From Candidatus Limnocylindrales bacterium (lineage in GTDB: Bacteria > Moduliflexota > Moduliflexia > Moduliflexales > JAUQPW01): 52,166 nucleotides of DNA. The stretch is taken from NCBI GenBank assembly GCA_035559535.1, contig DATMBG010000011.1:1-52166 (forward strand). Direction: 5' to 3'. The notes beneath the pieces were generated by a model, which saw only the letters and a program-made list of their open reading frames with translations, searched no databases and was not told the origin of the DNA. A program made the translations under genes and the position numbers. This document shows, in pieces, positions 12,891-23,930 of the stretch; the first letter of the stretch is position 1; each line of letters begins with the position of its first letter.

Positions 12891-13934
12891 TTATCTAACT
12901 GACCTGAATTCAAGGGTTTTCAGAATCATACAATCACGTCCTTTTTCTTTAGCTTCATAGAGAGCTTTGTCGGTGCATGCAATGAGATCTTCTACTGAAG
13001 GAGCCGTCAGTCCGTAATCTCTGGGTGGAACGGTGCTACAAACCCCCAGGCTTAACGTGACGTATTGGCTTACCGGGGATTGCTCATGGGGAATGGCCAG
13101 TTGTTGGACCTCTGTTCGTATGGTTCCGGCCACCTGGATGGCTCCCTGGGCCTTTGTATTGGGAAGAACTACCGCAAACTCCTCTCCACCGTAGCGAGCA
13201 ATTAAATCTGCCGGACGTCGGACACTTCGGGTGATTGCCTTTGCAATAGCACGTAAACAGTCATCTCCTTTTTGGTGCCCATAGGTATCGTTATAACGCT
13301 TAAAATAATCCACATCACAGAGGATTAAAGATAAGGGTTCTTGTTCTCGGGCCGATCGGCGCCACTCTTGACGAATATATTCGTCAAACTGAAGGCGATT
13401 GGCTACCTGGGTTAAGCCGTCTAAAGTGGCCAGACGTCGCAGTTCTTGGTTCGCTTTTCGTAGTGCTTCTTCGGTTCGCTTACGCTCGTTGATTTCTCGC
13501 TGAAGTTGTTGATTAAGTTTTTTCTGCTGCTTGATAAGCGCACGGAGTTGTAAGTGGGTCCGTACCCGGGCACGGACTTCTTCTTGTTGAAATGGCTTGG
13601 TGATATAATCTACCCCACCCGACTGAAAGCCTTCTACGATGGCTTCCATTTCTTTCTTTGCCGTAATAAAAATGACAGGAACATCTCGATTGGCTTCCTG
13701 CATTTTGAGTTGGCGGCACATCTCGAAGCCATTCATGTCCGGCATCATAACATCTGCCAAAACCAAATCAGGTAAAAAATGATCGGCAATCTTGAGGGCT
13801 TTTTCTCCACTAGAGGCTATGGCTAAATCATAACCTTCGGGTTCCAGGGTCCTGACCAAAATGTCGATATTTGCCGGTATATCGTCTACCAACAGAATCT
13901 TCATTTCAGATACGTTTAAAACCTCATCCTTCAT
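12891..13934 (-). CDS. Response regulator diguanylate cyclase (REC-GGDEF, PleD/WspR-like)
   Basis: ILLVDD..DVMMP..KP receiver; DGLT, RPAD I-site, RYGGEEF. Confidence 0.95.
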   Translation of the reverse strand: MKDEVLNVSEMKILLVDDIPANIDILVRTLEPEGYDLAIASSGEKALKIADHFLPDLVLADVMMPDMNGFEMCRQLKMQEANRDVPVIFITAKKEMEAIVEGFQSGGVDYITKPFQQEEVRARVRTHLQLRALIKQQKKLNQQLQREINERKRTEEALRKANQELRRLATLDGLTQVANRLQFDEYIRQEWRRSAREQEPLSLILCDVDYFKRYNDTYGHQKGDDCLRAIAKAITRSVRRPADLIARYGGEEFAVVLPNTKAQGAIQVAGTIRTEVQQLAIPHEQSPVSQYVTLSLGVCSTVPPRDYGLTAPSVEDLIACTDKALYEAKEKGRDCMILKTLEFRSVR

Positions 13935-14030: not shown

Positions 14031-16628
14031 TTAGGATGGTAGCCTTCCTACTATCTCTTGTAAACCCTCCAGATCATATCTGTTTACAAATTCCTTTAGA
14101 TATGTGGCCAATTGAGCTGCTTCTGGACCTAAGGTTTCCATTTCGGCGAGAGACTGTTTAAGCCGGGTAATCATACAAAACTCGGCGTCCTCTTTCAAGC
14201 GCCTTAAAAGATCTTCTGGTAGATGGAGTTTGGAAAGTACCGGAAGGGTTGTGGTATCTTTGCTATCCAAGCAATCTTCTGGTTTGGTTTCTTCAAATTC
14301 GTATTCGACCTTGAGAAGGTTGGCCAGGCAATCGAAAATCTCTTCCATCCGGATGGGTTTTGTAATAACTCTGTGGCATCCTGCCTGGAGAAATCGATCC
14401 TGCTCATGGTTGAAGGCTAAAGCGGTCATCATAACCATTTTAATCTTTTCCCTGCCGAATTCTTCGGTGATGCGTTGAATGGTTTCAACTCCATCTGGAA
14501 CAGGCATGAGATAATCCATAAATACAATGTCAGGCATCTGTTCACGGACTTTCTCTATAGCTTCCTGTCCATTCATAGCTTCCAGGACTTCAACCCCAAT
14601 TTCTGACAGCATATCCGATATCACTTCTCGATTGGAGGCGTCATCGTCAACAACCAGGGCTTTAACTCGATAACCGGGAGCCAGGCGAGAGACCTTTCCT
14701 TTACAATCCTCTCGTAAAAAGGACTCTTTTAAGACTGGTGAGAGGGGAATAGTGAAGAAAAAGCATGCCCCCTGACCTTCCTGGGACTCTATAGCCAGTT
14801 CCCCTCCCATCAATTCCACGTAGGTTTTGGAAATACGTAAACCCAGACCGGTTCCTCCTTTTCGGATTCCTTTCTCATCTTGATAAAAGGGATCGAAGAT
14901 GGTTTTCTGGATATTCACCGGAATACCTGGGCCCGTGTCGATAACTTCGAAGAGATATTGTGAAGCGTCTTTTTGGGTTACTCTTAGTACAACACTTCCC
15001 GAAGAAGTGAATTTAACCGCGTTATCCAATAAATTGATCAAGATTTGTCGGAGCTTGCCCTCATCTCCTCGCACCAGAAGATGGGATCTTCCTTCCAGGC
15101 CCTCTACCCGCCAGGTTAATCTGTTTTGCTCGCAACGAAGTTGAAACATGGCGGAAAGATCCGTAATCAAATCGACCAGATCAAAATCTGTGGAGTTTAA
15201 TTGTATACGTCCTGCTTCGATTTTAGATAAATCCAGAACATCATTAATAAGCTGTAGCAGATGGTCTCCACTCTTCTGAATGGTATTTACAGCTTTTCGC
15301 TGGGATCTGGTTAAATGAGGGTCGCGTTGTAAGATCTGGGTATACCCTAAAATGGCATTTAAAGGAGTACGAATCTCGTGGCTCATATGGGTTAAAAAAG
15401 TACTCTTGGCACGGCTGGCGATCTCTGCAGCTTCTTTAGCTTTGTAGAGTTCTTTTTCGGTACGCTTGCGTTCGGCTAATTCTTGTTGGGCCGAAGTATA
15501 TAATTGGGCATTATCTAAGGCAATGGAGGCCAGTTGGGCAAATCGATTTAACAACTCAACCTCATCTTCCCTGAACATTTGGTCTACTTCAAGTCGGCCT
15601 AAGCCGATAACACCTACCACATTTGGACCCGATTTAAGGGGAGCTGCTACAATGGCATGGAAAACATCACCCTTGAAAATGGGCAGGCGACCGGGCCAGG
15701 TTTGATAATCTTCCACCACCATCGTTTGACCGGTTTGCCAGACTTTTCCTACCAGGCCTTCATAGGGTTTTAAACAAATCCCAAGGTATTTACTATAAAC
15801 CCCCACACCTACCCGCAAAACCATGCCGGAAGCCGGGCTTAAACCTGTCCCCTTACTTTCCGAGTCAACTAAAAAGATAAATCCATGGGAAGTTCCCAAT
15901 AGGTTACCTGCCCGGGCAATGATCGTTTTAAGCAGATCATCTATTTCTAATCGATTCATTAAGGCCAGCGTCGTCTCATTCAAAGCCGCCAGATATTCAT
16001 TCTGCCGACGTAATTTTTCTTCGGATTGTTTACGTTCTGTAATATCCCGATTTAACCCGACGAGTCCAAAAATCCTCCCCCGGTTATCCCACAAAGGTAT
16101 CTTCGTCGTTAAAGACCATCCTGGGTTTCCCGTCCGGTCTATCATGGGTTCTTCTTGATGAACCAGGGGCTGGCCCGATCGGAAGATCTGCTGTTCATCG
16201 AGGTAATAGCGTGTAGCCAATTCTTTTGGGAAAAAGTCGAAATCCGTCTTTCCGATGATCTGATCCGGTGTTGCGATCCCTAAGAACTGCATCAGGGCGC
16301 GGTTAACGAGAACAAATTGGCTCTTAACATTTTTAACGTACAGGTAATCGGGTAGGCTATCTATCAATGTCTGCAATAAATTACGTTGCCTGACGAGAAT
16401 CTTTTCAATCCGCCTGTGCCGGATGATTTTTCGTTGAAGATGCCGGTTGATTTCGACTAATTGAGCCGTACGCTTTTTCACCTCTTCTCCCAAACGTTCC
16501 CGGTACTTTTGTAATTCCTCTTCCAGCCGGGCATATTTCGCCTTTAATTCTTTAAATTCGATCACCTGACCTGGTAAACCTTCGTATTTTTCCGGGTTGG
16601 ATTCTTTTATTTTATCTTTACTTTCCAT
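14031..16628 (-). CDS. Hybrid sensor histidine kinase (PAS-GAF-HisKA-HATPase-REC)
   Basis: IGKTDFDFF/RDITERK PAS, GAF, MSHEIRTPLN, NLLDNAVKF, GGTGLGL, DYLMP receiver. Confidence 0.95.
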   Translation of the reverse strand: MESKDKIKESNPEKYEGLPGQVIEFKELKAKYARLEEELQKYRERLGEEVKKRTAQLVEINRHLQRKIIRHRRIEKILVRQRNLLQTLIDSLPDYLYVKNVKSQFVLVNRALMQFLGIATPDQIIGKTDFDFFPKELATRYYLDEQQIFRSGQPLVHQEEPMIDRTGNPGWSLTTKIPLWDNRGRIFGLVGLNRDITERKQSEEKLRRQNEYLAALNETTLALMNRLEIDDLLKTIIARAGNLLGTSHGFIFLVDSESKGTGLSPASGMVLRVGVGVYSKYLGICLKPYEGLVGKVWQTGQTMVVEDYQTWPGRLPIFKGDVFHAIVAAPLKSGPNVVGVIGLGRLEVDQMFREDEVELLNRFAQLASIALDNAQLYTSAQQELAERKRTEKELYKAKEAAEIASRAKSTFLTHMSHEIRTPLNAILGYTQILQRDPHLTRSQRKAVNTIQKSGDHLLQLINDVLDLSKIEAGRIQLNSTDFDLVDLITDLSAMFQLRCEQNRLTWRVEGLEGRSHLLVRGDEGKLRQILINLLDNAVKFTSSGSVVLRVTQKDASQYLFEVIDTGPGIPVNIQKTIFDPFYQDEKGIRKGGTGLGLRISKTYVELMGGELAIESQEGQGACFFFTIPLSPVLKESFLREDCKGKVSRLAPGYRVKALVVDDDASNREVISDMLSEIGVEVLEAMNGQEAIEKVREQMPDIVFMDYLMPVPDGVETIQRITEEFGREKIKMVMMTALAFNHEQDRFLQAGCHRVITKPIRMEEIFDCLANLLKVEYEFEETKPEDCLDSKDTTTLPVLSKLHLPEDLLRRLKEDAEFCMITRLKQSLAEMETLGPEAAQLATYLKEFVNRYDLEGLQEIVGRLPS

Positions 16629-16652
16629 GGCCTTAGTTTTATCAAAATTTAT

Positions 16653-18317
16653 TCACCGTTGCAGATAGGATCGAAAGTAGGGTGGAACAAAATCCAGGTC
16701 GCTGGCTTCCTGGATAGCCAGTCGTATTTGGAAGTTCATCACTTCGGGAGGCACCGGATTTTGGTAATCGCTCAAGCATTCCTTGAGAGCCTCAGCCGGT
16801 CGACGGGATTCTGTACGAACCAATCGGTAAACTTTAACGGCCAGGGCTTCGGCAGCTCCCGGAGTAAGCAGTAAAGGAATGAGGGGTTCCAGTTCAGGGA
16901 ATTGGCTCTCCTCTATGTCGATTCCCCGTTTTCGGCACAAGGTCTGGATGAGTTGAAATCCTTCTCTGGTACTGGTAGTTGGGAAAATAGGTATTTTAAC
17001 GTCAATTCGACCCGGTCGTTTGAGATCTACTTCAATCAAATCAGGTCGACTGGAAGCTAAAATCCAGATGATTTTACCTCGATTCCGGGTTTGACCCATT
17101 TCTTCTGCTATCATCGAATACACGCGACCGGAAAGGCCTGAATCCCCGGTTCCAGAATCTCGCTTGCCAAGAGCCTGATCTGCTTCATCGATAAAGACGA
17201 AACAACGTCCCAACGCCTGAAGGAGTCTAAAAATTTTCTCCAAATTGCCTTCCGTACTTCCAACCCATTTGTCCCGGAAGTTTTTTAACTTAACTACCGG
17301 AACCCCGACTTCCCCGGCCAGACATTCTACCAGGAAGGTTTTACCCGTTCCTACCGGTCCACAAAGAAGATACCCCTTGGGCATTGCCTGGAGATCGTTT
17401 TGGTTCCACAGAACAATATCTTGTCGTAGCCAGGCCTTAATCTTTTCCTGTCCGTAGAGGTCGTCTAAAGTCCGTTGGGATTCGATGAATTCGATCAACC
17501 CATTACAATCCTTTTCCACAAGCTGTTTTTTTAATTCCACAAGGTCTTCGGATATCAGCTTTTGTTTTTGATACTCTTTCGTTTTAAGTAAGCTTTCGAT
17601 GGCACTGACCGTAGTACCGGCCAATTGATGGGCGAGGGTCTCAAAATGATCTCCGTATTCACCCAGAGCCGTTGTATAGCGAGGTGCCATCAGTTCAAAG
17701 GCTTTTTGTAAGTCCTGAGGGGAAGGTAAAGGAATTTTAATCTGAGCGGTCCGGGGGTTATTCACCAGGAGGGGATGCAGATCGTTAAGGTTTTCTGTGA
17801 TGAGAAACGTCGCCAGAGTGTGTCCGGTGAGTAAATTATCCCCAGCCCAGTCGCGAACAAGCAAGGCCATCGCATTTAAATCGTAGTTGAGGGCACCGTA
17901 CAGAGCCGGCATAACCAGATGGGCCGCTTTGATAAAGCAGCCGACCTGTAATCTGGAAATATTTAATCTGGCCAGATTCGCGCAGTAACGGAAGTAGTGG
18001 GTGAGCGTTTCGATGGCCATACGAGGGGCCTTAGGGAGTTGTTGGTTCTCCTTAAAACTTGGCCATTGGGAGAAGATTTCTCCTCCCTTTTCGATCCGAA
18101 TCCCATGACCCAGATCATAGCTGAGGATCACATCAAATCCCGCCATTAAAACCCGCAGAAGAAACTCGTTGAGGTCGCCCAGTACCGTCTTCGGACCTAA
18201 CGGTAGCACCAACCGATCATAAACATTCCCATACAGGATGAATTGGTTCGTGGCATTACTTTCGTATAAAGTGATGAGTTCTTTACTCCAATTGGGAAGT
18301 TGTTGGTCTGTCATCAT
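16653..18317 (-). CDS. Classical-clade AAA+ ATPase
   Basis: GPVGTGKT, KWVGSTE pore loop, FIDEAD, ASSRPDLIEVDLKRPGRID SRH; long N-region without a recognisable Walker A. Confidence 0.92.
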   Translation of the reverse strand: MMTDQQLPNWSKELITLYESNATNQFILYGNVYDRLVLPLGPKTVLGDLNEFLLRVLMAGFDVILSYDLGHGIRIEKGGEIFSQWPSFKENQQLPKAPRMAIETLTHYFRYCANLARLNISRLQVGCFIKAAHLVMPALYGALNYDLNAMALLVRDWAGDNLLTGHTLATFLITENLNDLHPLLVNNPRTAQIKIPLPSPQDLQKAFELMAPRYTTALGEYGDHFETLAHQLAGTTVSAIESLLKTKEYQKQKLISEDLVELKKQLVEKDCNGLIEFIESQRTLDDLYGQEKIKAWLRQDIVLWNQNDLQAMPKGYLLCGPVGTGKTFLVECLAGEVGVPVVKLKNFRDKWVGSTEGNLEKIFRLLQALGRCFVFIDEADQALGKRDSGTGDSGLSGRVYSMIAEEMGQTRNRGKIIWILASSRPDLIEVDLKRPGRIDVKIPIFPTTSTREGFQLIQTLCRKRGIDIEESQFPELEPLIPLLLTPGAAEALAVKVYRLVRTESRRPAEALKECLSDYQNPVPPEVMNFQIRLAIQEASDLDFVPPYFRSYLQR

Positions 18318-18363
18318 CTGTTCATGATGGGTTATCGGGTATGGGTCTCAGGAACAGCCTGGT

Positions 18364-19124
18364 TCAGCGCTCCGTCTCGGGACCCATGGTCTTGGTTTTT
18401 TGATTCGATGCCTCGGCAGAAGTATCCCCGGATCCTGCTGGGGGCTCCAGAACGATACCTTCTTTGGCAGCAAAATCGGCCAGGGCTTGTTCGGCCAGGG
18501 CTTGTTGTTCAGCTTCTTTCATTAAAACCTCGGTCATATCTATTTCACTGCGGGCGACCCGGACCCTTCCGGCTGCTTTTGCACGCTCCTCTTCTATCAT
18601 CTCATGGAGTCGATTGAGGGTATCTCCAGAACCTCCAATGGTCGTAATCATACCCGAGGCCATCTCCGTAAGCTCGGCCATGGCTTTTTTTATCTTGATG
18701 TCGTTAATTCCTGACTTAACAGCTTCAATCTTAGCCCGGGCAGCAGTAACGGCTACATCCCGGGCTTTGAGGAGATCTCGATACGTTGTCTCGGCCTGTT
18801 CTAGCTGTTTTCGGTTCTCTTCCAATTCACGGTTACCGTTTGTAATCGGAGCGCATATTGGGCAGCCGCCGATCGATTTCCCGCCTTTAAATTGGCTCCT
18901 GTTTTCGCCTTCAAATCCTGTTCTTCTACTTCGAGTTTCTTAACCTGGGCCATGAGTCTTTCACAAAGTGCTGCGTGGGAGGCTAAACCTTGATTATATT
19001 GACTGATCTGCCTGCGCAGATTTTCTTTCTCCGCTTCTAAAACAGCTTCCGGATTTCTCATTTCCAAACTCCCAATAAACAGACTAAAAAAACCCCTGAT
19101 TAAATTTGCAATGCGCCTAAACAT
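18364..19124 (-). pseudogene. PspA/IM30 family protein, split by a 1-nt frameshift at ~18831 (pseudogene or sequence error)
   Basis: GGAGG RBS; amphipathic MFRRIANLIRGFF start, NPEAVLE, long coiled coil; ORFs 18801-19199 and 18364-18825 join to ~253 aa on adding one base. Confidence 0.85.
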
Positions 19125-19170
19125 ATCTCTATCCTCCCTGAATGAGTTAATTCTTACCTGCTGTTCTGAA

Positions 19171-19199
19171 ATCGTATAAAGACTGACAGGAAATGTCAA
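19171..19199 (-). promoter_or_regulatory. sigma70 promoter of pspA with overlapping TGACA-N5-TGTCA palindrome
   Basis: TTGACA-17 bp-TACGAT on minus strand. Confidence 0.7.
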
Positions 19200-19229
19200 T
19201 AAAAAACGAGTTTAACCTGGATTTATCCT

Positions 19230-20114
19230 TTATCCTCCAAATCGATTCGATGGCAATCCGGTTACATCAAGTCGTACACAAAATAGATCTCCTGAGTAAA
19301 AGCTCTCCTGAATCTCCGGTTCGCTTAAACCTACCGATGCGGAGGTGACATAGAGCAGATCTCCTTCTTTTCCTCCAAAAACACAACTTGTGGGGCGTTT
19401 TACCGGCATGGGAACCCGTTGAATGAGTCGACCATTGGGCGCAAACCGAAGAATACACCAGCCGTCCCACTGGACGGACCATACACAGCCTTCTGCATCA
19501 ACGGTCAGGCCATCGGGGTAGGAAGGCGCATGGCTTAGATCAACAAAAATACGCCGGCGTGTAATATTTCCCGTTGGAGGGTCGTAGTCATAGGCATAGA
19601 TGATTTTTAAAGGAGAATCGGTATAATAAAAGGTTTTTTGATCCGGACTCCAGCCCAGGCCATTGGAGAGCGTCACATTCTTTTCCATAATGTGTAAACT
19701 TCCATCTGGATCGTAGCGATAAAGGGTCCCCTGACCTTTTTCCAGGGACCGGGACATAGAACCAAACCAGAATCGCCCCTGAGGATCACACTTGCCATCG
19801 TTAAAACGATTGTTGGGTTTATCCCCTTCTACTGTCTGAATAAGGGTAACCTCTCCTGTCAGGGTATCTAAATAAGCCAGGTCATGACGCAGGGTCATGA
19901 TTAACTTTTGGGATCGGGTTAATGCCACACAACTGACCATCTCACCCACCTTAAAAACACGATCCTGTCCCGTTGAAGGGGTAAACTGATGAACCACATG
20001 GTTGTAAATATCCACCCAATATACCCTCTGGGTTTGATCATCCCATACCGGACCCTCTCCCAAACGGGCTCTGGCTTCCAGAACATTTACAATGGGATAG
20101 TTGGTAAGATGCAT
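19230..20114 (-). CDS. SMP-30/gluconolactonase/LRE family protein
   Basis: LGEGPVW, RFNDGKCDPQGRFW, SNGLGWSPD, PDGLTVDAEG. Confidence 0.95.
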   Translation of the reverse strand: MHLTNYPIVNVLEARARLGEGPVWDDQTQRVYWVDIYNHVVHQFTPSTGQDRVFKVGEMVSCVALTRSQKLIMTLRHDLAYLDTLTGEVTLIQTVEGDKPNNRFNDGKCDPQGRFWFGSMSRSLEKGQGTLYRYDPDGSLHIMEKNVTLSNGLGWSPDQKTFYYTDSPLKIIYAYDYDPPTGNITRRRIFVDLSHAPSYPDGLTVDAEGCVWSVQWDGWCILRFAPNGRLIQRVPMPVKRPTSCVFGGKEGDLLYVTSASVGLSEPEIQESFYSGDLFCVRLDVTGLPSNRFGG

Positions 20115-22718: not shown

Positions 22719-22867
22719 GTGGAAGTGTGGGAGTGTGGAAGTAAGGGAGTGTGGAAGTGTTGAAGTATGGAAGTATGGGAGTAGAGGTGGAAATTCTCCT
22801 ACACACCCCCACCTCCACACTTCCACACTCCCTTACTTCCACACCTCCATACGCCCCTACTTCCACA
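22719..22867. repeat. 8-mer tandem repeats forming a long inverted repeat
   Basis: (GTGTGGAA/GTATGGGA)n arm, linker ttctccta, (TTCCACAC)n arm. Confidence 0.88.
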
Positions 22868-22880
22868 GAGAAGACCGAGT

Positions 22881-23930
22881 ATGAAATTTCCAAATAAAAT
22901 GCAGGCCATGGTATTGGAAGCGCCGAAGCAGCCCTTGCAGGCACGGGAAGTACCTGTTCCCCATCCCAACCCGGACCAGGTTTTAGTTCGTGTTCATGCC
23001 TGCGCCGTATGCCGCACCGATTTGCATGTTTTTGAAGGGGAACTTCCCGATCCAAAGCTTCCACTTATTTTAGGTCATGAGATTGTAGGAACGGTTATTC
23101 AAGTGGGGGATCGGGTTGAGCGATTTCGTGTGGGTGACCGAATTGGGATACCCTGGTTGGCATCTACCTGTGGTCGGTGTCGTTACTGCCAACGTGGACA
23201 GGAGAATCTGTGTGATCGTCCACTTTTTACAGGTTATACGGTTGATGGAGGTTATGCCGAATATACGGTTGCCCATCAACGCTATGGGTTTCACTTACCG
23301 GAAACTTATTCCGATGTAGAAGTAGCTCCCCTTCTGTGTGCGGGACTCATCGGATACCGATCCTATCGGCTGGCCGGGCCTAACGTAGAACGGTTGGGAA
23401 TTTATGGATTTGGGGCTGCTGCGCATATTATTCTTCAGATAGCAATATTTCAGGGGAAACAGGTTTATGCCTTTACCCGACCGGGTGATATTCAGGCCCA
23501 GGAGTTTGCTCGCCAGCTTGGGGCTGTCTGGGCCGGCAGTTCCACAGAGTTACCTCCAGAACCGTTGGATGCAGCTATTATTTTTGCCCCGGTGGGCTCC
23601 CTGGTTCCGGCAGCTCTCGCTGCAACGGTTAAGGGGGGAATCGTGGTTTGTGGGGGGATTCATATGAGCGATATTCCTTCTTTTCCGTATCGCCTGCTCT
23701 GGGAAGAGCGGGCTATTCGCTCCGTGGCGAATTTGACCCGCCAGGATGGTGAAGAATTCCTGGCCATCGCTCCGAAGGTACCGGTTAAAACAACGGTACA
23801 GGTATTTCCCCTTCAACAAGCCCAGGATGCCCTGGAGCGCTTGCGACGGGGAGAAGTACATGGGGCTGCCGTGCTTACCCTCTTCGAAGAACCCTCCCAA
23901 AAGATGGAAAACCCGGAGGTAAGATCCTGA
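22881..23930 (+). CDS. Zinc-dependent alcohol dehydrogenase family protein
   Basis: CRTDLH, GHE, CGRCRYC..ENLC, CAGLIGYRS, YGFGAAAH. Confidence 0.95.
   Translation: MKFPNKMQAMVLEAPKQPLQAREVPVPHPNPDQVLVRVHACAVCRTDLHVFEGELPDPKLPLILGHEIVGTVIQVGDRVERFRVGDRIGIPWLASTCGRCRYCQRGQENLCDRPLFTGYTVDGGYAEYTVAHQRYGFHLPETYSDVEVAPLLCAGLIGYRSYRLAGPNVERLGIYGFGAAAHIILQIAIFQGKQVYAFTRPGDIQAQEFARQLGAVWAGSSTELPPEPLDAAIIFAPVGSLVPAALAATVKGGIVVCGGIHMSDIPSFPYRLLWEERAIRSVANLTRQDGEEFLAIAPKVPVKTTVQVFPLQQAQDALERLRRGEVHGAAVLTLFEEPSQKMENPEVRS

Follow-up and report, generated by a model that had tools for sequence, protein, structure and literature searches.

ESCRT-III has accepted bacterial relatives in PspA and Vipp1, and the locus described here raises the question of whether a protein of the PspA branch might be served by an AAA+ ATPase of its own, as ESCRT-III is by Vps4. 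The locus lies in a stretch of 52,166 nucleotides (contig DATMBG010000011.1, Candidatus Limnocylindrales bacterium), referred to below as the window, and it consists of a gene for a PspA/IM30-like protein and a gene for an AAA+ ATPase, which a first-pass annotation made from the letters of the window had presented as a candidate ESCRT-III/Vps4-like pair. In the parts considered here, the reviews PMC7619361 and PMC10936438 state that a Vps4-like ATPase appears to be absent from bacteria. The annotation had also stated that neighbourhoods of this type were noted by comparative genomics but had no functional characterisation, and this agrees with the literature: they are described by Ravi et al. 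2024 (mSystems, PMC11237479), and no experiments on the pairing of PspA with a tandem-AAA ATPase were found in published work. In the portion of that article drawn on here, a PspA homologue neighbours an ATPase whose two AAA+ domains include an inactive one at the N-terminus; relatives add a transmembrane (TM) coiled-coil protein, an ABC ATPase, a permease and a PBPB/NMT1+OmpA protein; and ATP-dependent membrane remodelling is proposed by analogy with Snf7/Vps4, together with a suggested link of remodelling with transport. Because the article states that the accessory genes "may occur", their lack at a given locus does not exclude membership of the module. The window likewise has a PspA homologue and a same-strand ATPase with a predicted inactive N-terminal AAA domain, and it differs from the published module, as far as the portion considered goes, in holding the two-gene core only and in coming from a poorly sampled phylum. 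It is the minimal two-gene form of the PspA and tandem-AAA operon class known from the 2024 comparative genomics.

The ATPase gene is intact and encodes 554 aa, as annotated (16653-18317, minus strand). The PspA-like gene is located upstream on the same strand, and the 46 bp that the annotation had placed between the two genes are found between the TGA stop at 18364-18366 and the ATG of the ATPase gene at 18317. The annotation had given the upstream protein a length of ~253 aa; this length is obtained once a base is restored, but as it stands in the window the gene is interrupted by a frameshift that the annotation had missed. The span of the gene (18364-19124) measures 761 nt, which is not divisible by three; one frame runs from 19124 to 18804 (107 codons) and ends with a TAG at 18801-18803, and the remainder, as far as 18364, is read in the -1 frame. 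Alignment to relatives located the frameshift at 18829..18832 (minus strand), where the window reads CC and the relatives CCC, so that one C has been lost from the CCC run at 18831-18832 and the next Arg codon is broken. The first 98 codons (18831..19124, minus strand), which are 96% identical to those of the intact orthologue L003, encode helix alpha0, which is amphipathic, and the first part of the coiled coil, and the last 154 codons with the TGA (18364..18828, minus strand, -1 frame) encode an ALADFAAKEGI helix, a variable linker and a K-T-M-G-P motif.

If the deletion were real, the PspA-like gene would be a true pseudogene, and the ATPase would work alone or with the canonical PspA encoded on contig 17 of the genome (C17:10422-11066, 196 bits). 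The frameshift is indeed present in the window sequence as given, and that second PspA would be at hand, but we consider this very improbable. A 12.3-kb contig (depth 30.4) from the likely source run, X1, is otherwise identical to the window and has the extra base, and so have contigs of relatives from two other soil runs of other studies (X3 and X5); in all three the base is a G inserted behind plus-strand position 18830, and in run X2 the site was not covered. Moreover, both halves of the split gene still match the intact L003 gene at 94-96% identity and show no other damage, and the frameshift site is a short homopolymer run. The break is most likely an assembly error, given that the missing base is present in the independent X1 contig; since contigs drop rare variants, the source sample may also hold a frameshifted minority allele. 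Programmed -1 frameshifting was ruled out: all 20 relatives of a first survey are read in one frame, as are 79 of 81 PspA-like genes collected later (the two others, L030 and L037, contain stops), the contig from the source sample has the extra base, and no slippery heptamer was seen at the frameshift site.

The broken N-terminal fragment from the window, taken alone, gives 24.8 bits with the Pfam profile PspA_IM30 (PF04012), below the gathering cut-off of 33.9 bits, and the C-terminal fragment does not match this profile. The intact 253-aa L003 protein, 96% identical, reaches 41.3 bits, its match covering profile positions 3-216 of 220, and 42 of 44 members of the family match PF04012 at E <= 0.001. 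An atlas look-up placed the family with PspA clusters at 0.98. The amphipathic N-helix seen by the annotation is also apparent here, with a hydrophobic moment of 0.62 for residues 1-18, the maximum of the protein (mean 0.24), and this segment (alpha0) is nearly invariant in 79 PspA-like sequences. When the family profile was used against the PDB, no PspA or Vipp1 chains were retrieved at E <= 1; hhalign of the family with the canonical PspA of the same genome gave a probability of only 42.5%, and BLASTP of the PspA-like protein with this canonical PspA gave an E value of 0.17. [quoted passage not shown]

The ATPase is predicted to be built of two AAA domains. An alignment-based AF2 model (pLDDT 92.5) places a degenerate N-terminal AAA domain (D1, residues 1-270; 17508..18317, minus strand) upon an active classical-clade AAA domain (D2, residues 271-554 and the stop; 16653..17507, minus strand). 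D2 contains Walker A GPVGTGKT (G320-T327), Walker B D377-E378, the pore loop K350-W-V-G353, the R434-P-G-R437 of the second region of homology, which supplies the arginine fingers, and a C-terminal helical lid. Its reading as a classical AAA domain, made already in the annotation, is backed by Pfam AAA (E 1.3e-24), by NCBIfam and by PDB matches in sequence and in fold, and its catalytic and pore residues, among them the annotated KWVG and RPGR, occupy columns of a 54-sequence family alignment that vary hardly or not at all. D1 lacks both GxxxxGK[ST] and hhhhDE, the corresponding positions reading LYGNVYD and FIKAAH. Foldseek aligned ~583 columns of the model to AFG2, Rix7, Cdc48 and p97 (E 1.5e-21), and the fold comparison with VIA gave a Z score of 22.5 for NVL over 473 aligned residues; residues 5-542 of the model are matched with D1-D2 of NVL, Rix7 and Pex1/6, with model residue 5 corresponding to NVL residue 271. 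Both the model and the fold alignments bear out the annotation's suggestion of a dead AAA domain in the N-region, which we accordingly describe as a predicted nucleotide-dead D1.

As a statement of family, the Vps4-like label given by the annotation did not hold. The ATPase is not a member of the Vps4 family, because an MIT domain was not found in it (Pfam gives AAA only, and residues 5-270 fold AAA-like), its build is a tandem and not a single AAA, and CDC48 (77 bits) and FtsH (66) outscore CdvC (44.1) among the NCBIfam models, PAN giving 57; these scores lie far beneath the cut-offs of CDC48 (802.65 bits) and CdvC (650 bits). With D2 alone, the VIA comparison with Vps4 gave a Z score of 21.4 (rmsd 2.8, 262 aligned residues), tied with spastin, FtsH and Ycf2/FtsHi. 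Since Cdc48, FtsH, spastin and Ycf2/FtsHi are at least as close to the ATPase as Vps4 is, the analogy with Vps4 is one of context and not of ancestry. As for this context, ESCRT-III/Vps4 and CdvB/CdvC likewise have a gene of the ESCRT-III superfamily immediately in front of that for a classical-clade AAA+ unfoldase, and Vps4 and CdvC share with the ATPase of the window the classical-clade AAA domain, the aromatic pore loop 1 and the second region of homology. However, they combine an MIT domain, which binds the MIM motifs of ESCRT-III, with a single AAA cassette, whereas the ATPase described here has a D1(dead)-D2 tandem and no MIT domain, and the polymer protein of the window is of the PspA branch and not of the Snf7 branch. 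The stacked D1-D2 arrangement is that of Cdc48/p97/VAT, NVL/Rix7, AFG2/Drg1 and Pex1/Pex6 (450-480 residues, Z 20-22.5), and in Pex1/6 and NVL one ring is also catalytically weak or dead. Cdc48/p97/VAT have an N-terminal double-psi-barrel and an ATP-binding D1, whereas the ATPase of the window starts at D1, with neither a double-psi-barrel nor another adaptor domain before it, and lacks Walker motifs there; from Cdc48 and the other type II classical AAA+ proteins it further differs by its dedicated PspA neighbour.

In the PspA-PspF system of Proteobacteria, PspA is likewise tied to an AAA+ ATPase encoded nearby. PspF, however, belongs to another AAA+ clade and is an enhancer-binding protein for sigma-54; it carries an HTH domain and is inhibited by PspA, whereas the domain search found neither a DNA-binding nor a sigma-54 activator domain in the classical-clade unfoldase of the window, and the candidate promoter is sigma-70-like. 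This candidate (TTGACA-17-TACGAT, 19171..19199, minus strand, 10/12 matches) lies in the 105 nt that separate the PspA-like gene from the gene before it, and the sigma70-type promoter of the annotation is well placed; its location is what speaks for it, and nothing else does, since one such site was found in 16400-19400 vs 3.6 in shuffles. A GGGAGG ribosome-binding site (19133..19138, minus strand) can be read 8 nt before the ATG at 19124, and no GG-N10-GC-type (sigma-54) site was seen by eye upstream of the PspA-like gene. The four flanking genes encode an SMP-30/gluconolactonase, an M48 peptidase, a hybrid histidine kinase and a REC-GGDEF protein. The lack of pspB, pspC and pspF noted by the annotation is true of these four genes, and for PspC (PF04024) it extends to the whole genome (95.76% complete), where no match was found.

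The pairing first read from one locus is strongly conserved. Of 104 related loci, 83 have the PspA-like gene in front of the ATPase gene and on its strand; of the 21 others, 11 have too little upstream DNA and 10 have at least 1,700 nt upstream with no PspA-like gene; among the genomes of these 10 loci, all five tested have a PspA-like gene elsewhere, which scores 367-404 bits and shows the same tail motifs. Of 151 Acidobacteriota genomes, 12 carry both genes, 2 the ATPase only, 2 the PspA-like gene only and 135 neither. In an ATPase subfamily at 35% identity, a PspA-like gene again precedes the ATPase in 6 of 28 loci. Across many phyla the two genes are thus either linked or present in the same genome, and the linkage counts led us to reject chance adjacency. 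In the window's own phylum, represented by 9 species genomes, the module is confined to the genus of the window.

Longer forms of the operon contain, in this order, the PspA-like gene, SBP(NMT1)+OmpA, a permease, an ABC ATPase, c4 (a 2-TM membrane coiled-coil protein with its own conserved acidic C-terminal motif) and the AAA ATPase; this extended operon, with the same accessory genes, was recovered here independently of Ravi et al. 2024. One may ask whether these forms reveal the true function, namely an envelope or solute-transport device in which the pair, a wall-tethered solute-binding protein and an ABC importer couple the state of the membrane to uptake, and of which the window form would be a remnant. 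The suggestion of a link between remodelling and transport in the portion of Ravi et al. 2024 (PMC11237479) considered here points in the same direction as the long operons. However, in the window the genes beside the pair include no transporter gene and none of the accessory genes (TM coiled-coil protein, ABC ATPase, permease, PBPB+OmpA), and in 45 of the 104 loci the PspA-like gene is followed directly by the ATPase gene, with no c4 between them. In addition, the operon architectures are interspersed on the ATPase tree (FastTree), where at least 8-13 changes are needed, which argues that the core pair persists alone, and we regard the transport device as improbable. Regarding c4, hhalign with the PspA-like family gave a probability of 2.4%, so that a Snf7-like nature of c4 is not confirmed; an atlas lead to Rv2743c/PspM scored 0.88 and is a lead only. 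The role of the membrane protein and the ABC importer that many relatives carry is not covered by a disassembly model.

A feature that would suit a physical contact between the two proteins is the C-terminal tail of the PspA-like protein. As the annotation had noted, the tail appears flexible: its last ~30 residues are variable and rich in Pro/Ala/Ser/Thr/Gly/Glu, and the linker is probably disordered. At this end of the protein, a conserved A-L-A-D/E-F helix is followed by the variable linker and by a K-x-M/L-G-P motif near the C-terminus, which in the window is the K-T-M-G-P placed 5 residues from the end. This two-part motif is conserved across 79 aligned PspA-like sequences, with the form K-D/E/Q-L-G-P in distant subfamilies, and it resembles the MIM motifs of ESCRT-III in being short, conserved, C-terminal and carried on a flexible linker. 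The portion of Ravi et al. 2024 (PMC11237479) considered here makes no mention of A-L-A-D-F ... K-x-M/L-G-P, and Text S2.2 and Table S3 of that article may bear on it. The tail motif is retained in the genome of the window, in which a profile search with a positive control did not find a c4 protein. Because the motif is kept where c4 is not found, the ATPase is the remaining conserved candidate partner of the tail, and the motif would suit docking of the ATPase.

We give an even chance to the view that the pair is a two-gene module in which the ATPase remodels or recycles the PspA-like polymer via its tail, as Vps4 does for ESCRT-III. The PspA-like protein would polymerise on the inner face of the cytoplasmic membrane via its amphipathic N-helix, and the ATPase, presumably a hexamer, would dock on the exposed tail motif, probably via the dead D1 ring in place of an MIT domain. 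The D2 pore could then pull the tail through at the cost of ATP and extract subunits, so that the polymer would be remodelled or recycled. More tentatively, and at rather less than even chances, we propose that this ATPase family is the dedicated counterpart of Vps4 that has been missing in bacteria and that it arose independently, from a tandem AAA protein of the Cdc48 type; it would dock via its dead D1 on the tag of a specialised PspA (A-L-A-D/E-F, then K-x-M/L-G-P), thread it through D2 and disassemble or constrict the polymer.

Since E. coli PspA regulates PspF and is not its substrate, the action could also run in the opposite direction. The PspA-like protein would then be a regulator or membrane adaptor that holds the unfoldase inactive or brings the ATPase to the stressed membrane, where the ATPase would extract or unfold other clients, such as damaged membrane proteins or, where it occurs, c4. 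The regulation of PspF by PspA is an established precedent in the reviews, in the parts considered here, and the membrane-protein extractors Msp1/ATAD1 and Pex1/6 are among the fold matches of the ATPase. Furthermore, in an ATPase subfamily at 35% identity c4 lies directly upstream in 17 of 28 loci and is thus commoner there than the PspA-like gene, which precedes in 6 of 28, and c4 has a terminal motif of its own, as described above. Against this stand the lack of DNA-binding and sigma-54 activator domains in the ATPase, the conserved terminal motif on a variable linker, which has the look of a threaded or docked substrate, and the genome of the window, which keeps the pair without c4. On balance we hold the reversed direction to be rather unlikely, and we favour the turnover of the PspA-like polymer by the ATPase.

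The PspA and tandem-AAA neighbourhood itself was already known from Ravi et al. 2024 (PMC11237479, in the portion considered), and the window provides one more example of it, in its minimal two-gene form and from a poorly sampled phylum. What is added to the published neighbourhood is a confident model of the ATPase, counts of co-occurrence at the genome level and the conserved C-terminal tail motif, which offers a precise handle for binding and mutation work. A dedicated AAA+ partner of the PspA branch, kept across many phyla, bears on the apparent lack of a Vps4-like ATPase in bacteria (PMC7619361, in the part considered), and the pairing suggests a route for the recycling of bacterial ESCRT-III-type polymers. 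If the ATPase family were indeed the counterpart of Vps4, the turnover of ESCRT-III-type polymers at the cost of ATP would extend beyond archaea and eukaryotes.

The 554-aa ATPase is encoded by an intact ORF running from 18317 to 16653 on the minus strand, and 46 nt upstream of it, exactly the gap given in the first-pass annotation, lies the TGA stop (18364-18366, minus strand) of the PspA-like gene. The latter had been taken as one ORF at 18364-19124, but this span is 761 nt long and therefore cannot be read as one frame: a first frame of 107 codons extends from the ATG at 19124 to a TAG at 18801-18803 (minus strand), and the rest of the gene, as far as 18364, is open in the -1 frame. Alignment with four relatives revealed that one C of a CCC run is missing in the window at 18831-18832 (minus strand). 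Contigs from public sequencing runs were compared with the window over 18300-19300. In run X1, the likely source sample, a 12.3-kb contig (depth 30.4) carries a G inserted after plus-strand position 18830 and otherwise shows no differences from the window in this stretch; the same inserted base was observed in contigs of X3 and X5, two soil runs from another study, and run X2 had no coverage of the site. With the base restored the gene has 762 nt, i.e., 253 aa plus the stop, which matches the claimed length of ~253 aa. Since the contigs of X1, X3 and X5 carry the base and a 762-nt gene results, the frame break in the assembled record most likely reflects an error or a minor variant, within the limits of a comparison based on contigs, which drop rare variants. 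The reported observation holds apart from the frameshift, which had gone unnoticed. Frame breaks are also found in related metagenome-derived loci: the L030 ATPase (L030:4001-5604) is split over two frames, the PspA-like tail of L083 (L083:2965-3738) is out of frame, and there are stops inside the PspA-like genes of L037 and L030. Assembly errors of this type may be common in these metagenome bins.

The PspA-like gene is preceded by a GGGAGG ribosome-binding site and by a sigma-70-like candidate site, TTGACA-17-TACGAT (19199-19171); the proposed sigma70-type promoter has a candidate sequence in place, but the promoter scan was not above chance for the region. SMP-30/gluconolactonase and M48 peptidase genes flank the module upstream. 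On the other side, the next gene is that of a PAS-GAF-HisKA-HATPase-REC hybrid histidine kinase (14031-16628, minus strand), which starts 24 nt past the ATPase stop; a REC-GGDEF diguanylate cyclase gene (12891-13934, minus strand) comes after it. Downstream of the module in the related locus L003, genes of the same similarity clusters (which are not domain assignments) occur in the same order, and other phyla lack this gene order. Co-transcription of the module with c-di-GMP signaling genes is a possibility for the window's genus only. In line with the pspC absence claimed for the stretch, no PspC turned up in the window's genome (95.76% complete). Elsewhere in the window, two short intergenic tandem arrays (22719-22782 and 22796-22867) precede an alcohol-dehydrogenase-like gene at 22881; one consists of eight copies of GTGGAAGT and the other of three copies of a 24-nt unit containing the reverse complement, ACTTCCAC, so that the two arrays are an inverted pair.

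The N fragment of the window gene scored 24.8 bits against Pfam PspA_IM30, below the threshold of 33.9, and the C fragment had no match to this profile. The intact L003 orthologue (253 aa, 96% identical) reached 41.3 bits and covered positions 3-216 of the 220-position profile, PF04012 was matched at E <= 0.001 by 42/44 members of the family alignment, and the protein atlas placed the protein among PspA clusters at 0.98, all of which bears out its proposed PspA/IM30 identity. At the sequence level it is a divergent branch of PspA: the same genome also encodes a canonical PspA (G000:C17:10422-11066, locus L001; PF04012, 196 bits), to which the window protein is barely similar (BLASTP E 0.17; hhalign probability 42.5%). 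A family profile search of PDB sequences found no PspA or Vipp1 chains at E <= 1. The highest helical hydrophobic moment (0.62) falls on residues 1-18, where an amphipathic N-helix had been claimed. From related loci 81 PspA-like genes were extracted and, leaving out L030 and L037 because of their stops, 79 were aligned. The protein is unusually conserved, with a cross-phylum identity of 55-75%, and carries a three-part C-terminal tail: a nearly invariant A-L-A-D-F-A-A-x-E-G, a variable, 15-30-residue linker enriched in Pro, Ala, Ser, Thr, Gly and Glu, and a conserved K-S/T-M-G-P that lies 3-12 residues short of the C-terminus. The canonical PspA on contig 17 of the window's genome, the only one compared, stops before any such tail.

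In the ATPase, Pfam detected one AAA domain (residues 316-443); the NCBIfam scores (CDC48 77 bits, FtsH 66, PAN 57) were all far under the cut-offs, and the best PDB sequence matches were domains of VAT, Cdc48, p97 and AFG2. A model obtained from a 54-sequence alignment (pLDDT 92.5, pTM 0.75) matched, as a whole chain in Foldseek, AFG2/Drg1 (E 1.5e-21, ~583 columns) and also Rix7, Cdc48, p97 and NVL. With VIA, residues 5-542 matched NVL (Z 22.5, 473 aligned), and the whole chain Rix7 (Z 22.4) and Pex1/6 (Z 21.0). By these matches the N-region is an AAA-like D1. Its Walker A and Walker B positions are occupied by LYGNVYD and FIKAAH, so that D1 is unable to bind or hydrolyze ATP in the usual way; the dead AAA domain, suggested as a possibility in the first pass, is borne out by both the fold and the lost motifs. 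The C-terminal domain, D2, keeps GPVGTGKT, D377-E378, the KWVG pore loop and R434/R437, invariant or nearly so in the 54-sequence alignment, and hence the pore loop and the second region of homology arginines were correctly noted. In VIA comparisons of D2 alone, the scores for Vps4 (residues 268-538; Z 21.4, rmsd 2.8, 262 aligned), Ycf2/FtsHi (Z 20.5), spastin (Z 20.2), FtsH (Z 19.9) and katanin (Z 19.7) were effectively tied. Unlike Vps4, the ATPase has no MIT domain, and unlike Cdc48 it has no Cdc48-type N domain. By sequence and model the protein belongs to a type II classical AAA+ family of its own, neither Vps4 nor Cdc48; "Vps4-like" describes an analogy and not membership, given the missing MIT domain, the tandem build and a CdvC score of only 44 bits, which is likewise far under its cut-off.

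Related ATPases, 54-96% identical to that of the window, were collected at 104 loci in two scans of species-representative genomes, the second scan contributing the best 80 of at least 577 confirmed relatives. In this set, best 80 included, a same-strand PspA-like gene was present upstream in 83/104 loci, lying directly before the ATPase in 45 and separated from it by c4, a gene for a ~275-aa membrane coiled-coil protein, in 38; c4 stood at the contig edge in 4, less than 1,700 nt of upstream sequence with nothing seen was available in 7, and 10 had at least 1,700 nt upstream without a PspA-like gene. A gene-neighborhood survey had been proposed earlier; in this set it shows strongly conserved linkage. 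The 10 loci without an adjacent PspA-like gene were mostly from Verrucomicrobiales and Akkermansia, and in 5/5 of their genomes examined the gene was found elsewhere (367-404 bits, same tail motifs). Among 151 evenly sampled Acidobacteriota genomes, 14 matched the ATPase D1 region and 14 the PspA-like profile (each at E <= 1e-20). The two coincided in 12 genomes, each occurred alone in 2, and 135 had neither, these being related and not independent genomes. Another four profile matches were weak (E 1e-11 to 1e-13) and resemble canonical PspA. In a 35%-identical ATPase subfamily (28 loci), the gene directly upstream was PspA-like in 6, c4-like in 17 and neither in 5. Long operons have the order PspA-like, SBP(NMT1)+OmpA, permease, ABC ATPase, c4-like, AAA ATPase, and in distant forms the tail reads A-L-x-D/E-L/F ... 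K-D/E/Q-L-G-P. The two- and three-gene architectures are intermingled on a FastTree built from 129 ATPases, where the starred branches require no fewer than 13 changes for the PspA-ATPase form and no fewer than 8 for the c4-containing form; the window groups with L003 only. Within the window's phylum the D1 region was found in the window's genus only (2/9 species genomes), and the nearest homologues outside the genus (three, one from Planctomycetota) are 72-81% identical. This patchy distribution arose through either transfer or loss.

The c4 protein (e.g., L008:3135-3968, L011:3152-3976, plus 36 other loci) carries two TM helices at its N-terminus and a long helical region; its C-terminus bears a conserved acidic motif, F-G-E-S-E-x-A-V-A-D-L. 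It had no match in Pfam, hhalign against the PspA-like protein found no relation to PspA (2.4% probability), and an atlas lead to Rv2743c/PspM (0.88) was below the trust line. Two c4 copies (C5, C21) and one ATPase D1 match at E <= 1e-20 were observed in G014, the Acidobacteriota genome of L008; a further module, its ATPase more distant, may be present there. In the window's genome (95.76% complete) c4 was not found with a model that finds it in two control genomes. The tail motif is nevertheless kept there, which leaves the ATPase as the remaining conserved candidate partner of the motif. The two families, the dead-D1/active-D2 build, the linkage and the tail motif are established. The PspA-like protein would polymerize on the membrane via its N-helix, the ATPase would form a hexamer and dock on the exposed tail, probably via D1, and the tail would be threaded through the D2 pore, so that subunits are removed. 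Vps4 acts on ESCRT-III in the same way, but the recognition device here would be unrelated. The main rival reverses the polarity: the PspA-like protein would be a regulator or adaptor of the ATPase, for which PspA acting on PspF is a precedent, with c4 or damaged membrane proteins as the clients. Recycling of PspA-type polymers by the ATPase, as first suggested, is plausible by analogy.

According to Ravi et al. 2024 (PMC11237479), bacterial PspA occasionally co-occurs with a two-AAA+-domain protein whose N-terminal domain is inactive; longer operons may hold PspA and TM-bearing Snf7 homologues with that ATPase, their further genes being those of an ABC ATPase, a permease and a PBPB+OmpA protein; ATP-dependent remodeling comparable to Snf7/Vps4 was suggested. 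This neighborhood is the window's module, c4 may be their 'TM Snf7', and PspA-AAA neighborhoods were indeed already known from comparative genomics. A Vps4-like ATPase is still treated as absent from bacteria in passages of a 2025 review (PMC7619361) and likewise in passages of Makarova et al. 2024 (PMC10936438). In Popp et al. 2022 (PMC9239133) 'AAA' or 'ATPase' occurs in the reference list only, and the same applies to 'AAA+' in a Plant J 2026 review (PMC13051332), where Vps4 is mentioned only for eukaryotes and Asgard archaea. A full-text search of a limited literature collection found no experimental study of the PspA plus tandem-AAA pair, in line with the earlier statement that no functional characterization was known. 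The module is real and conserved, and its kind had been described before from in silico work; what is added here is a confident ATPase model, co-occurrence counts and a tail motif that offers a handle for experiments.
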